Counted from the stretch's first letter, positions 1,241 through 49,047 are shown. The stretch is 64,000 bases of DNA from Candidatus Omnitrophota bacterium (GCA_043826565.1 JBDRPX010000030.1:21660-85659); one strand, 5' to 3'. The notes: a model not told the origin generated them from the letters alone. Program-made: numbers and translations.

Positions 1241-1340
1241 CCTCGAACCCGCCAAAGTGAGAGGTCTTTGCCTTTGAATATTATATCGCCACAATAATTA
1301 AATACCAAGGAAAATTTAGGTCATTCTTATTTAGTGTATC

Positions 1341-1381
1341 TATGTAATCTGGTTTTTAATCACTGCAATCAGGTTCTTTCA
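1341..1381 (+). promoter_or_regulatory. Copy A of the tripartite motif GTAATC-N6-TTAATC-N5-AATCAGGTTCTTTCA, in the divergent region between ilvD and gene 1497
   Basis: Sequence tatGTAATCtggtttTTAATCactgcAATCAGGTTCTTTCA. It shares an identical 15-mer (AATCAGGTTCTTTCA) with the copy upstream of wza, and the tripartite core with copies at 2710 and 12307. Confidence 0.4.
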
Positions 1382-1496
1382 AGTTTACAAAAAACAAGAA
1401 AGAACCAAAAAATTTGCAAAGTTGAAAATTGTATGGTATATTTTAAAATCTTTTTAAAACAGTTAATTTATCTGATTTTCAAATGGGGGCCTGGAG

Positions 1497-2689: not shown

Positions 2690-2709
2690 CTATATTAAAC
2701 TTAGACAAT

Positions 2710-2743
2710 CACTGTAATCTGCTTTTTAATCATTGTAATCAGG
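2710..2743 (+). promoter_or_regulatory. Copy B of the tripartite GTAATC/TAATC/AATCAGG motif
   Basis: cactGTAATCtgctttTTAATCattgtAATCAGG, nearly identical to copy A. It lies 84 nt upstream of the ykgJ-like start, in inverted orientation relative to that gene. Confidence 0.4.
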
Positions 2744-2783
2744 GGCATTATCTAATTTTTCAACCTAAATAAGAATGTCCCCA

Positions 2784-3116
2784 TTACCAGCGTTTTGGCT
2801 GACGATCCTGTCCGCCTCTAAATCCGCCGCCGCTACTGCCGCCGCCAGTAGAATTATCACGTTTTCTGGCCTGACTTACTTTTAAAGCACGGCCGTTTAT
2901 CTGCTGGCCATTAAGCATTTCTATGGCCTGATCAGGGTTTGCATCTGAAGCGAGTTCCACAAACCCGAACCCTTTGGATCTGTCGGTATACTTGTCTTTT
3001 ATAATACGCACTGATTGCGCGGTAACACCTTTTTCAGAACAAAAACTGCTTAATTCATCTTCGGTTAAAGTATAATCCAGATTTCCTACATATAATTTAT
3101 TACCTTCGTCACTCAT
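2784..3116 (-). CDS. RRM-type RNA-binding protein with a glycine-rich C-terminal tail
   Basis: RNP-2 LYVGNL and RNP-1 KGFGFVEL motifs, with a C-terminal GGGSSGGGFRGG tail. Confidence 0.8.
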   Translation of the reverse strand: MSDEGNKLYVGNLDYTLTEDELSSFCSEKGVTAQSVRIIKDKYTDRSKGFGFVELASDANPDQAIEMLNGQQINGRALKVSQARKRDNSTGGGSSGGGFRGGQDRQPKRW

Positions 3117-3345: not shown

Positions 3346-3867
3346 TTATATGATTTCTACCACCGTAACTTCAAAATGCAATTCTTTACCGGCAAGCGGA
3401 TGATTGAAGTTCAAAACTACGGAACCTTCGCTTACCTTATCAATAACCGCAGGGTATGACCCGCCTTCAGGGGTACCCACGGAAATCATTTGTCCTTCTT
3501 TTAAAGGAATATTTTCCGGAAATTCAGCCTTGGGAACTTCCTTAAAGGCATCCGGCTTGACTTCTCCGTAAGCTTCCGCAGCAGCAACAACAACCGATTT
3601 ATGATCGCCAACTTTTAAGCCTTCCATCTGCTTCTCTAATCCCTTAATGATTTTGCCTTCTCCCTGCACATATTCAAGAGGGCCAGTGTTCTGGGAACTG
3701 TCTACTTTCTGCCCATCAACTGTAAGAACATAATCAAATTTTACTGTTTTTCCAGCTGCAATCATTTTTTGCTCCTCCTTAACTTCTGTCCCGGCATATA
3801 CCGGCGTAGTCATAGCAAAACTGCAAAGTATTATACCAGAGCAGAAAATACTTATTAATCGTCTCAT
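3346..3867 (-). CDS. FKBP-type peptidyl-prolyl cis-trans isomerase (SlyD/FkpA-like), secreted
   Basis: Signal peptide, then an FKBP core (KFDYVLTVDGQKVDSS...PLEYVQGEGKIIKGLE...VLNFNHPLAGKELHFEVTVVEI). Confidence 0.7.
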   Translation of the reverse strand: MRRLISIFCSGIILCSFAMTTPVYAGTEVKEEQKMIAAGKTVKFDYVLTVDGQKVDSSQNTGPLEYVQGEGKIIKGLEKQMEGLKVGDHKSVVVAAAEAYGEVKPDAFKEVPKAEFPENIPLKEGQMISVGTPEGGSYPAVIDKVSEGSVVLNFNHPLAGKELHFEVTVVEII

Positions 3868-3993
3868 TTTATTTTTCTATCCCCCCTTCAAGCTGAAGCT
3901 GCCGGACAAATCCCCTTAAGCCCCATTATTGCTTGTACTTAGTAGCTGTTTATTATGTACTACGATAACCTGTTTGTCAAAGGATAATATAAT

Positions 3994-10800: not shown

Positions 10801-12246
10801 TTAATCAATCACATCCACATTCTTTTTATTCATACCCAACACGGATAATGCCGCCTTGGTTTTTTTAAATAATTCATGCGCGGAACGGATCTTTACGGCC
10901 CGGGATAATACATACCCGGGACGCAGATAAAATCCCCGGTAAAATTTCACCAGCAGCCCGAATAATTCCTCACGCTTAAAATTTTCTTCCCATACCGGAA
11001 GTTTAAATCCGGGGCGCGGCTCCCGGGAAAATTCCTGCCAAAGGTCTGTTTTAATAATACCCTGCTTTAGCCCCTGCGCATAGAACTCTGTGCCCGGATA
11101 AGGAGAAAATATGGTAAAATGCGCGTATGCCGGACGTACTGCTTTAGCCAGATTAAAAGAATCCTGAATATCCGCTAAAGTTTCCGAAGGTAATCCGATC
11201 ATAAAATAAGCCAGAGTATCTATGCCGGCCTGCCGGGTGAGATTGAATGTTTCTTTTACTTTTTCAATCGTAAAACCTTTTTTTATTACTTCCAGCATCC
11301 GGTTATTACCGGCTTCGATCCCGTAATGTATGCCCACACACCCGGCTGTTTTTAAAGCCTTGAGCATTTTTTTCTCAACCATATCCACCCGGGTCCGGAT
11401 ATCCCAGCGGATCTTTAACTTCCGGCGGATGATCTCCTCGCATATCTCAAACACACGTTTCTTATCCACGGTAAAAGTATCATCATAAAACAAAAAATCA
11501 CAAATCCCCATTTCCACACATTCGGCAAGCTCATCAACTACATTTTTCGCGCTGCGCGTCCGAAACACCGAAGTTACCGGAGAAAGCGGACGGTCACAGA
11601 AAGCGCAGTGAAACGGACACCCCCGGCTGCTGATAAATGTTGTCGAAAGCCGGCGCCTACTCAATAAAGAACCGTACTGATTCTTATCCACCATCTCCCG
11701 CGCCGGGAACGTGATCGTATCAATATTTTGTATCGGAGCAAAATCATTTTGCACCACTTTTCCCTGCTGATCTTTATACATCAACCCGGGAATTGTTGGG
11801 TAATTTTCCGGATTATTTATGTTCTCTAAAAAAGTAATAAAAGACTCTTCAGCCTCTCCTTTTAAAACAAAATCCACACCCTTAAGATTAATCGTCTCCT
11901 GAGGATATAAATGAACATGAGTTCCGCCTAAAACAACTTTAGCCTGCGGCAGGTTTTTTTTGACCATGGCAACTGTTTTAAAAACATCGATCAGGGTAAA
12001 AGTCATTGCCGTAATTCCCACAACATCATAAGAATCTTTCCCAAGATACGTTTGCAATTGTTCATATGTCCAGTTAAGCGGCTGGGTATCCAGGATTTTC
12101 ACTTCGAATTTATTATATTTTTTAATTGCCGCGGCCAGATAAAGCAAACCCAGCGGTAAATTATAACCCCGGTGTTTTTCTATAATCGCCGGGTTTTTAC
12201 CGATCAGTTCATTCGCTCGGGGAGGATTGATCAGAAGAATTTTCAT
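10801..12246 (-). CDS. B12-binding-domain radical SAM enzyme
   Basis: N-terminal cobalamin-binding-like domain (MKILLINPP...LGLLYLAAAIKKYNKFEVKILD) and a radical SAM CxxxCxxC motif (SRGCPFHCAFCD). Confidence 0.8.
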   Translation of the reverse strand: MKILLINPPRANELIGKNPAIIEKHRGYNLPLGLLYLAAAIKKYNKFEVKILDTQPLNWTYEQLQTYLGKDSYDVVGITAMTFTLIDVFKTVAMVKKNLPQAKVVLGGTHVHLYPQETINLKGVDFVLKGEAEESFITFLENINNPENYPTIPGLMYKDQQGKVVQNDFAPIQNIDTITFPAREMVDKNQYGSLLSRRRLSTTFISSRGCPFHCAFCDRPLSPVTSVFRTRSAKNVVDELAECVEMGICDFLFYDDTFTVDKKRVFEICEEIIRRKLKIRWDIRTRVDMVEKKMLKALKTAGCVGIHYGIEAGNNRMLEVIKKGFTIEKVKETFNLTRQAGIDTLAYFMIGLPSETLADIQDSFNLAKAVRPAYAHFTIFSPYPGTEFYAQGLKQGIIKTDLWQEFSREPRPGFKLPVWEENFKREELFGLLVKFYRGFYLRPGYVLSRAVKIRSAHELFKKTKAALSVLGMNKKNVDVID

Positions 12247-12306
12247 TTTTTAACACATTTCCCAAAATATGGCTGTTACAAAATGCCCCAATACCAACTT
12301 TTGCTT

Positions 12307-12338
12307 CTCTGTAATCTTGTTTAATCTATGTAATCAGG
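12307..12338 (+). promoter_or_regulatory. Copy C of the tripartite GTAATC/TAATC/AATCAGG motif
   Basis: ctctGTAATCttgttTAATCtatgtAATCAGG. It lies 60 nt upstream of the radical SAM start and about 160 nt before repeat-element copy 1. Confidence 0.4.
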
Positions 12339-12497
12339 CGCAGTTGCTATTATGCAACAGCGCCATAATTACTCTATCATACCACCTTAAAAAGGTAAAG
12401 AATAAAGGCATCTACTTCCGTCTGTCTTAATTCTGTTAACTGTTTAAAGTATAAAGTGTAATGTAAAAAATATTTGTTATATATAGTAAATAGATAT

Positions 12498-12621
12498 GGC
12501 AAAAATTCTCTTTGAGCGGCGCTTTCGAGCGTAATCCGCCCATGGATGGGCGAGATAGTGAGAACGCGCGGCCGCCAGGCACGATGCCGCAGCGGGCTTA
12601 GCTCAGATACGTGTTTTTGCC
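12498..12621. repeat. Copy 1 of a conserved ~110-125 nt structured intergenic element (candidate small RNA, leader or MITE)
   Basis: GGCAAAAAttctctttgaGCGGCGCTTTCGAGCG-[hairpin CCGCCCATGGATGGGCG]-GATAGTGAGAACGCGCGGCCGC-[hairpin GGCACGATGCC]-GCAGCGGGCTTAGC...GTGTTTTTGCC. It is homologous to the copies at 22122-22229 and 59585-59706. Terminal 8-nt inverted repeat GGCAAAAA/TTTTTGCC. Confidence 0.5.
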
Positions 12622-12698
12622 ATTAGCTATTTATCCCCCTGAAACTACCACGCCCAGAAGATGTTACATCCTGTAACTCGGCCTGGTCATTTCGTCCT

Positions 12699-12737
12699 GA
12701 AACGAAAACTCCCTCTGCAATTAGATTACAGAGGGAG
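12699..12737 (-). terminator. Rho-independent terminator of the FadL-family gene
   Basis: Minus strand: CTCCCTCTG-taatctaattg-CAGAGGGAG followed by TTTTCGTTT, 70 nt downstream of the stop codon. Confidence 0.55.
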
Positions 12738-12809
12738 TTAAGAAACATTATTCAATTATCCGCCACAAAACATTGGCGGTTAATCTTCGACGCAGAATCT
12801 GCGTCTCAA

Positions 12810-14520: not shown

Positions 14521-17500
14521 TTAGCTCACCGGGAAAGTAATCGTAAATTTTGTGCCTTGTCCTTCTTCGCTTTCCACGGAAATATCACCGTTATGGTTTT
14601 TTATGATCCGGTAAACAATGGATAATCCCAGGCCGATCCCTCCGTCAGGAGATTTTGTCGTAAAAAAAGGATTAAAAATATTATTTAAACTCTCCTGAGA
14701 AATACCACAGCCGGTATCACTGATCTTTATTTCCACATGTTTTTTATCAGCGGTTAAGGCCGTAGCCACACTTATATCTCCCCCTTCCGGGCACTCTAAG
14801 CTGTCGATAGCATCCCGCGCATTTGAAATAAGATTAACAAAAATCTGCTGCAGCTGGTTTTCATCGCCCTGGATATCCGGCAGGTTTTCGCTAAAATCCA
14901 GGTTTAACCGGATATTGCGCAGCTTAAGCTGCTGGCTGATTAATGATAATGAATCTTCCAATGGTTTATGAATACTGATTTTTTCCATTTTAAATTTGGA
15001 CTTCCGGGAGAAAAAACGGATCTCTTTAATGATCTTATCCATTCTATCAGCTTGTTCTAAAATTCTATTTATATCTTCCCGGAAAGGGCTGTTTTCCTCC
15101 AGATCCATCTGCATAGCCTGGGCAAATCCCTTAATCCCGGTAAGCGGCTGATTTAATTCATGCGAAATACCCGCGGCCATCTGCCCCATTGCCGCCATTT
15201 TCCCGGATTGAATAATCTGTTCCTGTGCTTCCTTTAACTGATTATAAGCCTCCCGAAGTTCCATTTCATTTTTCTTTCTTTCAGTAATGTTCCGCACACT
15301 GGACACAATATACTGTTTATTTTCAAACTCCACATATTTAACATTCGCTTCTATGGGGAAAATCGCTCCGTACTTGGTTTTGCTTCGGCCTTCTATCACA
15401 AACATACCCCGCGCTCTCACCTCTTCGACATGTTTTTCCCAACTTAATTCATCCGGAAAGATCGTTTCAATATCCATAACTCTCATAGCCAGCATTTCCT
15501 TGCGGGAATAGCCGTACAAATCACAGGCCCGGTCATTTAAATCAATAACTTCAGCAGTTTTCGGATCGACGATAAAAATCGCGTCATTGGATTGATCCAG
15601 TAAAGCGCGAAATACTTTCAGATCATTCTCTGACTGCTTACGCTGGGTAATGTCTCGGGCATATAAATTAACATATTCTTCTAATACCGGAGTTATATCA
15701 AATAAATAAACCTTATCACCGCAGACCAATTCTTCCGCGCAATCCTCTCCGGAAGAAAACACTTTGGCGATCAGATCAGTCCAAAAACCCGGGAGTTTTT
15801 TACCTACGGCAGATCCCCATATAGCAAGTAATATTTTTCCGGCGATATTAGAATAGAGCACTGTCCCGTGTTTGTCTATTCGCAATACCGGATTGGGGTT
15901 TTCCTCCGGGAACCTTGCCAAGTCCTTGATTTTTTCCTCTGCCATCTTGCGTTCGGTAATATCCTGAAAAATACCCCGGACTTTTACAACCCTACCGTCT
16001 GTTTCCACAACTTCGCCGATTGCCTGACACCACTTTAAATTTCCCTTTTTTGTTTCAAGCATTGCTTCAAATACCATCGGCTGTTTTGTCTCGATTAAAT
16101 CTTTCATTTTTTTCTTTATCATCTCGCGGTACTCAGGAAGATACCAGTCCACATGCTCATTTGCTCCGGGGATAGGCTCATCTTGCTCAATCTCGACGAT
16201 ATCATAAACCCCTTTAGTCCATACTGCTTTGCCGCCTTTTTCTAAATCCATTTCCCATCCGCCGATCCTGGCAATATCTCCGACTTTATTTAACAATCTC
16301 TCTCTTTCTTTTAAATCATCTTCTATTTTTCTTCTTTCGGTAATATCCTCATGCATCATTATTACATTACGAATTACCCTATTTTTATCCTTAGTTGAAT
16401 ACATATAAGAACGAATAATACGTTTTCTTCCTTTTATATTAGCTGATGAAGTTTTCTGAGGATCATATTCAAACGGCGGCAGAGAAATGGGTTCACCGGC
16501 AAAAGCTCTTTCAATATATGGCATAAACCCCAAACTTTCCACCTGGTCATCGCGAAGAATATTGTATTCTTCGTGTATTCTACTTAATTCTTCACGACTC
16601 ACTCCCCAAAGTTCTGCATAAGCATCATTAACCTGCAAAATCTGTCCCTCAGGGTTCATTATTTGAATAGCCACAGGAGACTGTTCCATAAAAGCACGAA
16701 AGCCTTCTTCGCTTTCCCGAAGCTCTTCTTCGGCTTGTTTACGTTCCGAGACATCCCTGATTACTCTAAGAATTCCCATCGCTTTTGCTTTATCATCAAA
16801 GATCAATGCCGCGGAAGTTTCGCCATAAAAAATACTTTTGTCTTTTCTTATATGCTTGTCCGTAATCTGTTTCATTTTCCCATCAGCCACTAAATTACGA
16901 AAACGCTCCTGCTCCATACCCCAGTCTTCCGGAGAAATAAGTTCCTTAAAAGAATGTCCAATCAATTCATTATCGCGATCATATCCATACAAATCCAAGG
17001 CTTGCGGAGAAAGAAAAGTTAATACTCCCTCCAGATCACTCATAACTATCGCGTCCGGTGAGGTATTTACCAGGGTACGATAAGTCACCTTTTTCTGGGC
17101 CAAAAGAACTGCCGACCTTTTTCTTATTAAAATATTGGCAAATAGTTCTCCAATACACCTAAATCTCGACAATAACTCTTTCGGCCATTCCCTGGCTTTA
17201 GTTATATCATTAATTGAGATCATCCCCAGAGCTGATCCGGCCACAGCCAGAGGGATAACCACAATACCCTTAAGGCCGTTTTTCTTAAATAATTTAAGTT
17301 CCGGCACTGCCGAATCCGGGATATTTTTGGGGTCATTAACCACAATAATTTCTTTTTGTTTTATTTTTTTGATTGTCCAGGAAAAATCTTTTAAGATTAC
17401 CGGCGGCGGATTAATATCGGGAGGAGCATAGTAATGGGTTGTTTCTAAAGAATTTTCGTCTTGAGAAGGAAACTGCGCCAGAGAAATTCGCTCAATTTGC

Positions 17501-48394: not shown

Positions 48395-49000
48395 TTAAAA
48401 AAGACTCTCCGGCACAAATACCACATCGCCGCGCTCTAAGACAACATCCTCTCTGCCCTTTTTAACTATATCCGCAACTCGCACTATTATTGTTTTTGAT
48501 TCTCCGGCTTCTGTCCTCATAATCTTTACAGCATTTTGGGCCGCTATTTTTGAAAACCCCCCGGCCAAGCTTATTGCCTCTAAAACAGTTAGATTGCTTT
48601 TTAACTCATACTCTCCCGGGCGCATAACTTGCCCGGAAACAGTAATTGTGCTGTATTTCTCGATAAATATATTTACATGAGGATTTTTGAGGTATTTTTT
48701 AAGCATCATTTCCATGGATGTCTTAAGTTCCGCAACTGTTTTCCCACTTGCCTCTACCTGCCCGATCAAGGGAAAAGAAAAATATCCATCATGAGAAATC
48801 CCTACTCTTCTGTTTAATTCATCTTCACGATAGACGCTTATACTTAAAACATCATCCGGGCCAATTAAATAATCCTGGGCAAAAACAGCCTGCCCCAAAA
48901 TGCTTACCTGCATCAGCAATGCCATACATAGAGGAAAGATAAAAAAACTTTTTTTCAACGCTCCGCTCCCTTTTTTAAGTTCGTTCTTATCTGAAAGCAC
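48395..49000 (-). CDS. wza: Wza-type polysaccharide export protein (Poly_export + SLBB domains)
   Basis: Signal peptide, then DYLIGPDDVLSISVYREDELNRRVGISHDGYFSFPLIGQVEASGKTVAELK (Poly_export motif). GTG start at 49000 inferred from the ORF track. Confidence 0.7.
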   Translation of the reverse strand: MLSDKNELKKGSGALKKSFFIFPLCMALLMQVSILGQAVFAQDYLIGPDDVLSISVYREDELNRRVGISHDGYFSFPLIGQVEASGKTVAELKTSMEMMLKKYLKNPHVNIFIEKYSTITVSGQVMRPGEYELKSNLTVLEAISLAGGFSKIAAQNAVKIMRTEAGESKTIIVRVADIVKKGREDVVLERGDVVFVPESLF

Positions 49001-49047
49001 CTGAAAGAACCTGATTTCACAGATTAGTATAAGATTATACTGATTTG
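49001..49047 (-). promoter_or_regulatory. Copy D of the tripartite motif (minus orientation), 10-47 nt upstream of wza; contains a perfect TATAAT
   Basis: Minus-strand read: cagTATAATCttatacTAATCtgtgaAATCAGGTTCTTTCAggtg. The 15-mer AATCAGGTTCTTTCA is identical to copy A. The preceding plus-strand sequence is three 10-bp units CTGAAAGCAC/CTGAAAGAAC/CTGATTTCAC. Confidence 0.4.

Follow-up and report, generated by a model that had tools for sequence, protein, structure and literature searches.

We analysed a 64,000-nt stretch of DNA from a Candidatus Omnitrophota bacterium (GCA_043826565.1 JBDRPX010000030.1:21660-85659), here called the window, in which four gaps between open reading frames (ORFs) carry near-identical copies, A to D, of an AATC-rich repeat array. 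The copies lie beside a plus-strand gene at 1497-2216 (A), a gene for a CxxCxxCC-domain protein (B), a B12/radical-SAM gene (C) and wza of the exopolysaccharide (EPS) operon (D). They are copies of a widespread modular intergenic element of Omnitrophota, in which an array is usually followed by a hairpin, and they most likely make up a general promoter/operator module rather than a switch between EPS export and the radical-SAM operon. We rank first, at a probability of roughly 0.45, the reading that the array is a docking site for a double-stranded DNA (dsDNA)-binding protein at promoters, from which RNA would leave at the CA/GG junction and open with a stem-loop.

Four intergenic arrays in the window

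The presence of four look-alike sites is confirmed and significant. The original prediction had reported near-identical sequences in four intergenic regions, and all four were found at those positions, each between ORFs. The pattern TAATC-N5-AATCAGG occurs four times against 0.10 expected, at 1357-1373(+), 2727-2743(+), 12322-12338(+) and 49010-49026(-), a count reached in none of 100 shuffles of the window. Its longer form, TAATC-N5-7-TAATC-N5-AATCAGG, also has four matches with 0 mismatches, all intergenic; allowing 1-2 mismatches adds none in the window, and allowing 3 brings in only noise or self-overlaps. The heptamer AATCAGG alone shows no enrichment in the window (11 vs 9.4 expected). 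Using a profile hidden Markov model (HMM) trained on 59 arrays, all from other genomes and with the window copies excluded, we recovered exactly A-D (27-35 bits, E 1e-9 to 3e-7), and the next-best match in the window reached 6.8 bits (E 0.68). Arrays occupy 4 of ~19 intergenic gaps (~20%), and their density is ~1 per 16 kb in the window and among non-seed hits alike. The four arrays are as follows.

1336-1371, plus strand: array A, gTATC-tatg-TAATC-tggtttt-TAATC-actg-cAATC-A, HMM E 2e-8
2707-2741, plus strand: array B, AATC-actg-TAATC-tgctttt-TAATC-attg-tAATC-A, the best match in the window, E 1.2e-9
12304-12336, plus strand: array C, cTTC-tctg-TAATC-ttgtt-TAATC-tatg-tAATC-A, E 2.9e-7
49012-49045, minus strand: array D, AATC-agta-TAATC-ttatac-TAATC-tgtg-aAATC-A, directed towards wza, E 1e-7

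Similarity among A-D is confined to the array, and comparison of the window copies revealed no longer common element. All four are solo arrays and are therefore without a terminal inverted repeat. The 15-mer AATCAGGTTCTTTCA is common to A and D exactly as had been described, and the perfect TATAAT noted in D is present as part of its unit 2, TATAATC.

Structure of the array

Comparison with ~60 arrays of other genomes gives the full unit as [t-TTAATC-nn-TG-TAATC]-N5-7-[T-TAATC-nn-TG-nAATC]-A-GG, that is, two tandem 15-nt blocks that yield four units. The original prediction had read three half-sites with 11-12 bp periodicity. The repeat nature and the helical phasing hold, and the number and the uniform spacing do not: there are four units, the extra one lying 9 nt upstream, and the measured spacing is 9 / 10-12 / 9 nt (mean ~10) in all four window copies and the ~60 other arrays. 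Units alternate between TTTAATC and TGTAATC with a block-to-block period of 19-21 bp, so that the true repeat is the 15-bp block. The TG dinucleotides, which stand ahead of units 2 and 4, and the first unit are 80-100% conserved though absent from the search pattern. Among the window copies, B and D retain AATC in unit 1, which is degenerate in A and C.

More than two blocks are possible, as in L022, which has six in tandem (compared contigs and loci are cited by number). Arrays very often form back-to-back inverted pairs ~14-21 nt apart; these read 5'-TG...CA-3' and recur in fixed combinations of the hairpin classes given below, 2 with 2b and 1 with 4. The inverted arrangement argues that dsDNA is what is recognised, and paired arrays stand too close together for each to have its own promoter upstream. 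Judging by the phasing and the 15-bp blocks, the DNA-binding protein would be oligomeric.

Looser relatives of the array occur in L201, a syntenic relative of the window's EPS region. At 173-208 and 14716-14800 it has ATC-nn-TG units with ~10-11-nt spacing; one of these arrays contains TGTATAAT and ends directly at a Shine-Dalgarno sequence (SD) and ATG. They suggest that the family has more degenerate variants, under-counted by strict patterns and the HMM. Another contig, the PFOR-selected metagenome contig L135, carries a different dispersed repeat, AATCCGTGTAATCCGTGG (for example at 3574-, 13172+, 14562- and 15736+), which holds one AATC-nn-TG-TAATC block without the two-block array.

Hairpins that follow the array

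A variable hairpin usually begins at the (A)GG of the array, and the first paired base lies 0-1 nt past AATC in 38 of 46 arrays. The hairpins belong to a few sequence classes that recur across genomes.

Class 1: GGTATAATC...GATTATACC, then AGGAGG and ATG
Class 2, which includes window copy C: GGCGCTGGTGC...GCAACAGCGCC
Class 2b: GGGACTGTTGC...GCAACAGTCCC
Class 3, which includes window copy A and whose 5' arm is also found in D: GGTTCTTTC...GAAAGAACC
Class 4: GACATCC...GGATGTC

In the window, the inverted repeat starts at GG in A, B and C, and D has a weaker counterpart.

1372-1406, plus strand: copy A hairpin, class 3, GGTTCTTTC, a 17-nt loop and GAAAGAACC, followed by an A-run, not a T-run
2742-2782, plus strand: copy B hairpin, GGGGCATT...AATGTCCCC, abutting the RRM gene's stop codon, which reads TTA on the plus strand at 2784-2786
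12337-12364, plus strand: copy C hairpin, class 2, GGCGCAGTTGC-tattat-GCAACAGCGCC
48983-49011, minus strand: copy D post-array segment, with GGTTCTTTC in common with copy A

The only stem that D allows is weak (6 bp, GTTCTT/AAGAAC) and does not appear in the minimum-energy fold. Across classes 2 and 2b, 91% of cells are paired and four pairs are changed on both sides; none of the 500 shuffles or the slid controls reaches the covariation score, with most double changes coming from the one 2/2b split. Folding of the hairpins is better in the array-to-hairpin direction (27 vs 15, Wilcoxon p=0.008; G:U pairs 53 vs 14), in a test whose hairpin limits were taken from the sense fold and in which many sequences are related.

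The sequences downstream of class-2b hairpins are unrelated, with no conserved noncoding RNA (ncRNA) there. At gathering score, Rfam 15 matched no family to any array or hairpin, either of the window or of 16 array-bearing loci, and it gave nothing relevant around copy C at E<=1. We rejected an outer helix between unit 4 and the sequence 3' of the hairpin: it appears in A-C with a seemingly compensatory change, and in the family it is not enriched (mean 4.19 vs 3.90 shuffled). A plain intrinsic terminator was also rejected, given the A-run after hairpin A and the lack of a T-run directly after the stem in B, C and D; such a T-run is found in some copies elsewhere (L061-, L069-, L086).

Distribution across genomes

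A pattern scan of one genome per species matched at least 113 contigs. Among the 113 listed, 59 have HMM-significant arrays, with 84 arrays between them (at least 84 overall). The array-bearing contigs listed are mostly labelled Candidatus Omnitrophota or Omnitrophica; ten are 'uncultured Planctomycetia' metagenome-assembled genomes (MAGs) and a few others bear different submitter labels, which are unconfirmed. The remaining matches among those listed are apparent chance hits within genes of unrelated bacteria. No arrays were found in 1.18 Mb of control contigs (best E 0.5), namely 80 PFOR-selected metagenome contigs and five loci with radical-SAM homologues (L195-L199). The PFOR search, made for orthologous sites, had returned 59-65% relatives from other lineages, and its contigs were used as negative controls. 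A viral collection of 2.9 million contigs gave one probable chance hit, inside coding sequence, and a phage origin was rejected.

Occurrence within the phylum is patchy, with no array in three loci reached through radical-SAM homologues (two of them labelled Omnitrophota) or in three of four loci syntenic with the window's EPS region, and the core consensus is constant between contigs whose shared proteins are only 30-42% identical. A literature search turned up no account of this motif, and the element seems undescribed so far.

Gene context of the arrays

All 51 arrays analysed are intergenic. A gene start is present in 34 of 35 host gaps, a count that does not discriminate, since nearly all gaps in these loci hold one. 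Class-1 arrays are co-oriented with the gene in 13 of 13 cases, with the hairpin, AGGAGG and ATG ~45 nt downstream. In half of the antisense cases from other classes, the array ends within ~56 nt of the convergent gene's stop codon, and several hairpins, including that of copy B, abut it.

The downstream genes, confirmed by Pfam, encode RecA, SecY, Prs, DnaK, GlgA, ScpB, GatC, Fe/Mn-SOD, BacA and Wza, which have unrelated housekeeping functions. Arrays also lie within classic operons or gene pairs: rplO-[element]-secY, grpE-[array]-dnaK, glmU-prs and rpoD-gatC. In L076 the dnaK SD (AATCAGGAGGttttgaaATG) begins with the array's AGG, so that the start of that mRNA cannot be downstream of the array. 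Within the window, no regulator gene is preceded by the motif.

Window copies and their neighbours

All four sites lie within 130 nt of some gene start. A and D point to gene 1497 and to wza; B and C face away from the genes to which the original prediction had assigned them.

Copy A occupies a divergent gap. On one side a minus-strand ORF, called ilvD in the original prediction, starts near 1206, and on the other lies the plus-strand gene 1497-2216, to which the copy points. The product of this gene has a signal-peptide-like N-terminus; it has no Pfam match, and an exact protein look-up returned no record. The hairpin arms of copy A also follow arrays in L063, L086, L015 and L049. One further feature lies between the hairpin and ATG 1497.

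1414-1442, plus strand: sigma-70-like TTGCAA-17-TATATT, a consensus match only

If this match is used, array A would lie ~70-110 nt upstream of that start, not at it. Just upstream of array A, positions 1322-1334 (CATTCTTATTTAG) are the exact reverse complement of 2765-2777 in the 3' arm of the copy B hairpin. This 13-nt complement may have been left behind by module shuffling or may have arisen by chance (E 0.003, with a very small search space).

Copy B is antisense to both flanking minus-strand genes, the CxxCxxCC-domain gene (2248-2625) and the RRM gene (2784-3116). It faces away from the former, which starts 85 nt behind it, and towards the latter's 3' end. Its hairpin has a folding energy of -10.9 kcal/mol as plus-strand RNA vs -7.1 kcal/mol as minus-strand RNA. 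Between copy B and the CxxCxxCC gene start, 2658-2690 form a perfect 11-bp inverted repeat, CCCTCTATGAT-N8-ATCATAGAGGG, which on the minus strand stands just after a TAATAT box and before an SD (AGGAG). It looks like a 5'-terminal stem-loop of the CxxCxxCC mRNA, echoing the array-hairpin-SD-start order. Farther along, upstream of the FKBP gene 3346-3867, a near-consensus sigma-70 promoter is found at 3952-3980 (-), TTGACA-17-CATAAT (11/12), and suggests that ordinary sigma-70 promoters are used here alongside AATC arrays.

Copy C has an array identical to that in L114, and a hairpin nearly the same as those after arrays in L002, L042, L050, L061, L070, L107 and L113. It faces away from the B12/radical-SAM gene (10801-12246, minus strand; start ~60 nt behind) into a 470-nt noncoding stretch. 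Homologous radical-SAM genes in other contigs (P0019 and P0028, labelled Omnitrophota) follow a GT2 glycosyltransferase gene, so that synteny is not kept there, and have no array. The 466-nt region past copy C has fold z scores of -6.6 (plus strand) and -5.1 (minus strand), with no ORF >53 aa and no Rfam match at E<=1. Within 12335-12800, positions 12490-12640 are a GC-rich, strongly structured noncoding stretch with a long closing stem (AUAUGGCAAAAA...UUUUUGCCAU), lying between copy C and a TraF_2-like outer-membrane gene. This stretch is a candidate unannotated ncRNA or leader of the radical-SAM operon, and copy C could drive its transcription. Positions 12707-12739, past the TraF_2-like gene, form a hairpin with a 15-bp stem, a T-rich tail on the minus strand and a unit-like CTGTAATCTAAT in the loop region.

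Copy D precedes wza. The mechanical ORF start of wza, GTG 49000, falls within the post-array segment of the copy, and another start is more probable.

48957-48970, minus strand: probable wza start, SD GGGAG (48970-48966) and TTG (48959-48957), ~53 nt after the array

TTG 48959 is the probable true start: it gives a product of ~188 aa, against 186-190 aa in homologues, with a signal-peptide-like N-terminus. In L201, L203 and L204 the gene order (252-aa gene, porin, wza, wzz) is that of the window, although these relatives are distant (porin identity 46-54%). Their porin-wza gaps measure 12-24 nt vs 185 nt in the window, and copy D is absent there, which suggests that D is a lineage-specific addition of ~170 nt. 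L201 has an array pair in the next gap, wza-wzz, and an array stands ahead of a Wza homologue in L018.

A gene for a NusG paralogue, akin to operon-specific antiterminators of LoaP/UpxY type, is also present in the EPS clusters of the relatives (L201 14181-14702, L202 9627-10190, L204 16323-16895). L201 and L203 have, in addition, a small MerR-type gene after wzz.

A proposed protein-docking array at promoters

In the reading that we favour, the four helically phased T(G/T)TAATC units, in two 15-bp blocks ~20 bp apart, would form the docking site of a conserved sequence-specific dsDNA-binding protein. Its geometry would resemble tandem winged-helix response-regulator dimers, or two AraC/LytTR-type monomers. 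The OmpR/PhoB- or LytTR-like transcription factor proposed originally remains the best guess for the reader of the array, with phased direct repeats and, in addition, inverted pairs; since one block is a repeat of the other, such a factor is likelier than an alternative sigma. The array would lie on, or directly against, a promoter, transcription would leave it at the invariant C/A step of AATC-A-GG, and the RNA would open with a stem-loop with 0-1 unpaired 5' nucleotides. We infer this start from the invariant junction, the hairpin 0-1 nt later, the sense bias of the hairpin and the class-1 order of array, hairpin, SD and ATG. The C-A junction fits the rule of a pyrimidine at -1 and a purine at +1, and a 5'-terminal stem-loop with 0-1 unpaired nt protects mRNA from 5'-end-dependent decay.

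In the paired form, the gene-distal hairpin would stand beside the preceding gene's stop codon as a possible terminator or insulator. Among the window copies, the orientation of A and D would suit gene 1497-2216 and the wza/EPS operon, respectively. B and C would fire, or be bound, in the direction leading away from the CxxCxxCC gene and the radical-SAM operon, on which they could act only as orientation-independent operators. The anatomy, the spread across genomes, the intergenic location, the variety of neighbouring genes and the placement and covariation of the hairpins are observed; binding by a protein, the transcription start and an activating or repressing role are inferred. A protein bound from -40 to -1 would ordinarily repress, which counts against this reading.

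Further observations weigh against this reading. B and C point at no ORF, and outside class 1 orientation is near random (19 co-oriented vs 16 antisense). The rplO-secY and grpE-dnaK junctions normally have no internal promoters, yet hold arrays. Some class-1 copies have TATAAT just after AGG, or TTGTCA-17-TTTAAT upstream, making other starts possible. HMM scores in the window are bimodal, weak sites being absent. In some genomes, copies are near-identical over 85-100 nt, including spacer, loop, flanks and non-consensus positions at which copies from different genomes differ; such sets are L018/L093/L097 in JBDRDJ01 and L016/L045/L066/L074 in JAUVLC01. The bimodal scores and the near-identity are both more typical of a dispersed repeat than of operators that evolved independently. 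Three of four loci syntenic with the window's EPS region, picked motif-blind, have no array in ~17-21 kb each, and copy D is missing from the porin-wza gaps of the syntenic relatives. The way in which the fold-direction test was set up, described above, also lessens the support that it gives.

Alternative explanations

The strongest rival, which we regard as somewhat doubtful, is a dispersed mosaic intergenic repeat of the kind of repetitive extragenic palindromes (REP) and bacterial interspersed mosaic elements (BIME), BOX or Correia. AATC blocks and hairpin types would spread or be homogenised by a transposase, an HUH nuclease or gene conversion and land between genes regardless of operons, any effect on expression (terminator, mRNA stabiliser, outward promoter) being secondary. 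It explains the scores, the within-genome homogeneity, the orientation, the operon placement (inside rplO-secY and grpE-dnaK) and the gain of D better than the docking array does: copies agree within a genome and differ between genomes, and D would be a ~170-nt insertion relative to its syntenic relatives, with the L201 array in the wza-wzz gap instead. Its modular make-up (2-6 tandem blocks, with L022 at the upper end, inverted pairs reading 5'-TG...CA-3', fixed class combinations 1+4 and 2+2b) and patchy occurrence also fit. The original prediction had named a multicopy mobile element as the finding that would overturn it, and the data come close to one, with many sites, near-random orientation outside class 1 and D absent in relatives. 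Against a dispersed repeat, a single core consensus across 30-42% protein identity is unusual for REP-type repeats or miniature inverted-repeat transposable elements (MITEs), the window copies are solo and alike only within the array, class 1 is placed precisely before SD and ATG in 13/13, and the viral contigs lack the element bar one likely chance hit. Two specific forms were rejected. A classical, Correia-like MITE would leave target-site duplications, and the pair flanks (e.g. GCGCC / GGGAC in L002) are not direct repeats; for REP, the palindromes and the location between genes agree, but the flank that is conserved consists of AATCAGG with a 35-nt array, not a GTAG-type signature.

A boundary cassette that moves or is copied and pasted would reconcile the promoter-module and repeat views. 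In its fullest form, which we consider unlikely, this would be a self-contained transcription-unit boundary cassette, transposable or copied by recombination and specific to a large Omnitrophota clade, with a terminator-like hairpin, a double array, a programmed 5' stem-loop and sometimes its own SD; a clade-specific initiation factor would replace -35/-10 recognition, and the cassette would enter rplO/secY, grpE/dnaK and porin/wza and rewire them.

Quite unlikely is a reading of the array as a core promoter in its own right, used by an alternative sigma or a different RNA polymerase specificity factor whose regulon is large. The fixed length, high conservation, invariant CA/GG and spacer tolerance of plus or minus 1 nt (N5-7) would suit such a promoter, as would bimodal scores of the kind seen for sigma-54-type promoters and presence in ~20% of intergenic gaps. 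Another factor would in any case be needed, as the housekeeping sigma looks canonical: regions 2.4 and 4.2 of RpoD, which read -10 and -35, are so in the array-bearing contigs L057 and L061 (YATWWIRQAITRAI, VTRERIRQIE), which excludes a divergent housekeeping sigma. A housekeeping sigma-70 promoter was rejected because the units, T(G/T)TAAT, are without A-11, and no -10 with A-11 and T-7 lies at a usable position. The -35/-10 explanation, raised as an alternative in the original prediction, falls on the same grounds and on the presence of arrays in 4 of ~19 gaps. Upstream of unit 1 there is no general -35/-10 signal either; TTGACA-like hexamers do not pile up 17 nt upstream of it (6/65, all related class-1 copies), and TAnnnT is enriched there on neither strand. 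What counts against an alternative sigma is that the blocks are direct repeats, unlike -35 and -10 elements read by different sigma domains, that runs of more than two blocks and inverted arrays occur, and that many arrays point at no gene. We also know of no sigma consensus that the array motif resembles.

An RNA-level leader, in which AAUC repeats and hairpin are transcribed from an upstream promoter and an RNA-binding protein controls processing, stability or translation, seems improbable. The hairpin behaves as sense-strand RNA, arrays lie between cistrons of operons, and related class-1 solo copies with TTGTCA-17-(TGG)TTTAAT would place the start at unit 2; on the other side, inverted arrays would give a different RNA sequence, upstream promoter signals and Rfam matches were not found, and the outer pairing of unit 4 is no higher than in shuffles to any marked degree.

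Least probable is the regulon of the original prediction, a dedicated operator by which one regulator would join the wza/EPS operon, the B12-radical-SAM/TPR/PAS operon and two small genes: the gene starts near all four sites and the arrays by the Wza homologue in L018 and in the wza-wzz gap of L201 speak for it, and against it stand the unrelated housekeeping neighbours across genomes, B and C facing away from their supposed targets, radical-SAM homologues elsewhere without an array and the absence of D from the syntenic site in relatives. Targets are diverse rather than functionally coherent, site strengths are bimodal rather than graded, and the motif gives no evidence that EPS export and the radical-SAM operon share a regulator.

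Comparison with known systems

Omnitrophota are uncultivated, and to our knowledge nothing is known of how their transcription begins or is delimited. With its conserved 35 nt and its fixed junction, the array offers a handle to predict one class of transcription-unit boundaries in hundreds of MAGs and a bait for the cognate DNA-binding protein. It also lets one ask whether promoter, 5' untranslated region (UTR) and terminator functions travel together as a cassette.

In Bacteroidota, the promoter consensus -33 TTTG / -7 TAnnTTTG is read by a divergent housekeeping sigma and serves most genes. The array would similarly be a clade-restricted expression signal unlike TTGACA/TATAAT. It differs in that RpoD is canonical, only ~1/5 of gaps have an array and TTGACA-17-CATAAT occurs in the window. 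Stabilisers of the ompA 5' UTR type share with the element a hairpin 0-1 nt from the 5' end, if transcription starts at CA/GG; here, unlike in those, the hairpin would be hard-wired to a promoter-proximal DNA motif and would belong to a few conserved classes, and the start is a predicted one.

REP/BIME of E. coli, BOX of S. pneumoniae and Correia/ERIC elements resemble the element in combining modular blocks with palindromes, in lying between genes, often within operons and in either orientation, in being near-identical within a genome, and in their ability to supply terminators, stabilising hairpins and outward promoters. In contrast to them, the array core is kept across a deep clade and not in one species or genus, no GTAG or terminal-inverted-repeat-plus-target-site-duplication signature is present, and one subclass always stands precisely before SD and ATG.

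For the docking array, the closest models are activator and response-regulator sites. AraC/XylS and LytTR activator sites consist of two 15-17-bp or 9+12-bp direct repeats with a ~21-bp period. The array has a comparable block period (19-21 bp), and two sub-motifs ~10 bp apart in each block would accommodate one monomer of LytTR type or with two helix-turn-helix motifs. Those sites end at or upstream of -35, whereas the array reaches the predicted start, or the SD in L076, and also occurs in inverted pairs and runs of more than two blocks.

Multi-repeat operators of the OmpR/PhoB family include those of E. coli ArcA (2-5 TGTTA repeats, 11-bp phasing) and B. subtilis PhoP (four TT(A/T/C)ACA), the pho boxes of PhoB, HLR1 of cyanobacterial RpaB and the sites of chlamydial ChxR. 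The array departs from them in its 9 / 10-12 / 9 spacing, in alternating TTTAATC/TGTAATC units that make the 15-bp block the repeat, in ungraded site strength, in the RNA-type hairpin that abuts it and in the homogenisation of copies in some genomes. Like them, it has the phased direct repeats expected of an OmpR/PhoB-type operator, at least two in number (here four, up to ~twelve), with a TGTAA-like core and a phasing of about one helical turn, and it would lie on or next to promoters, in either orientation, at many diverse targets.

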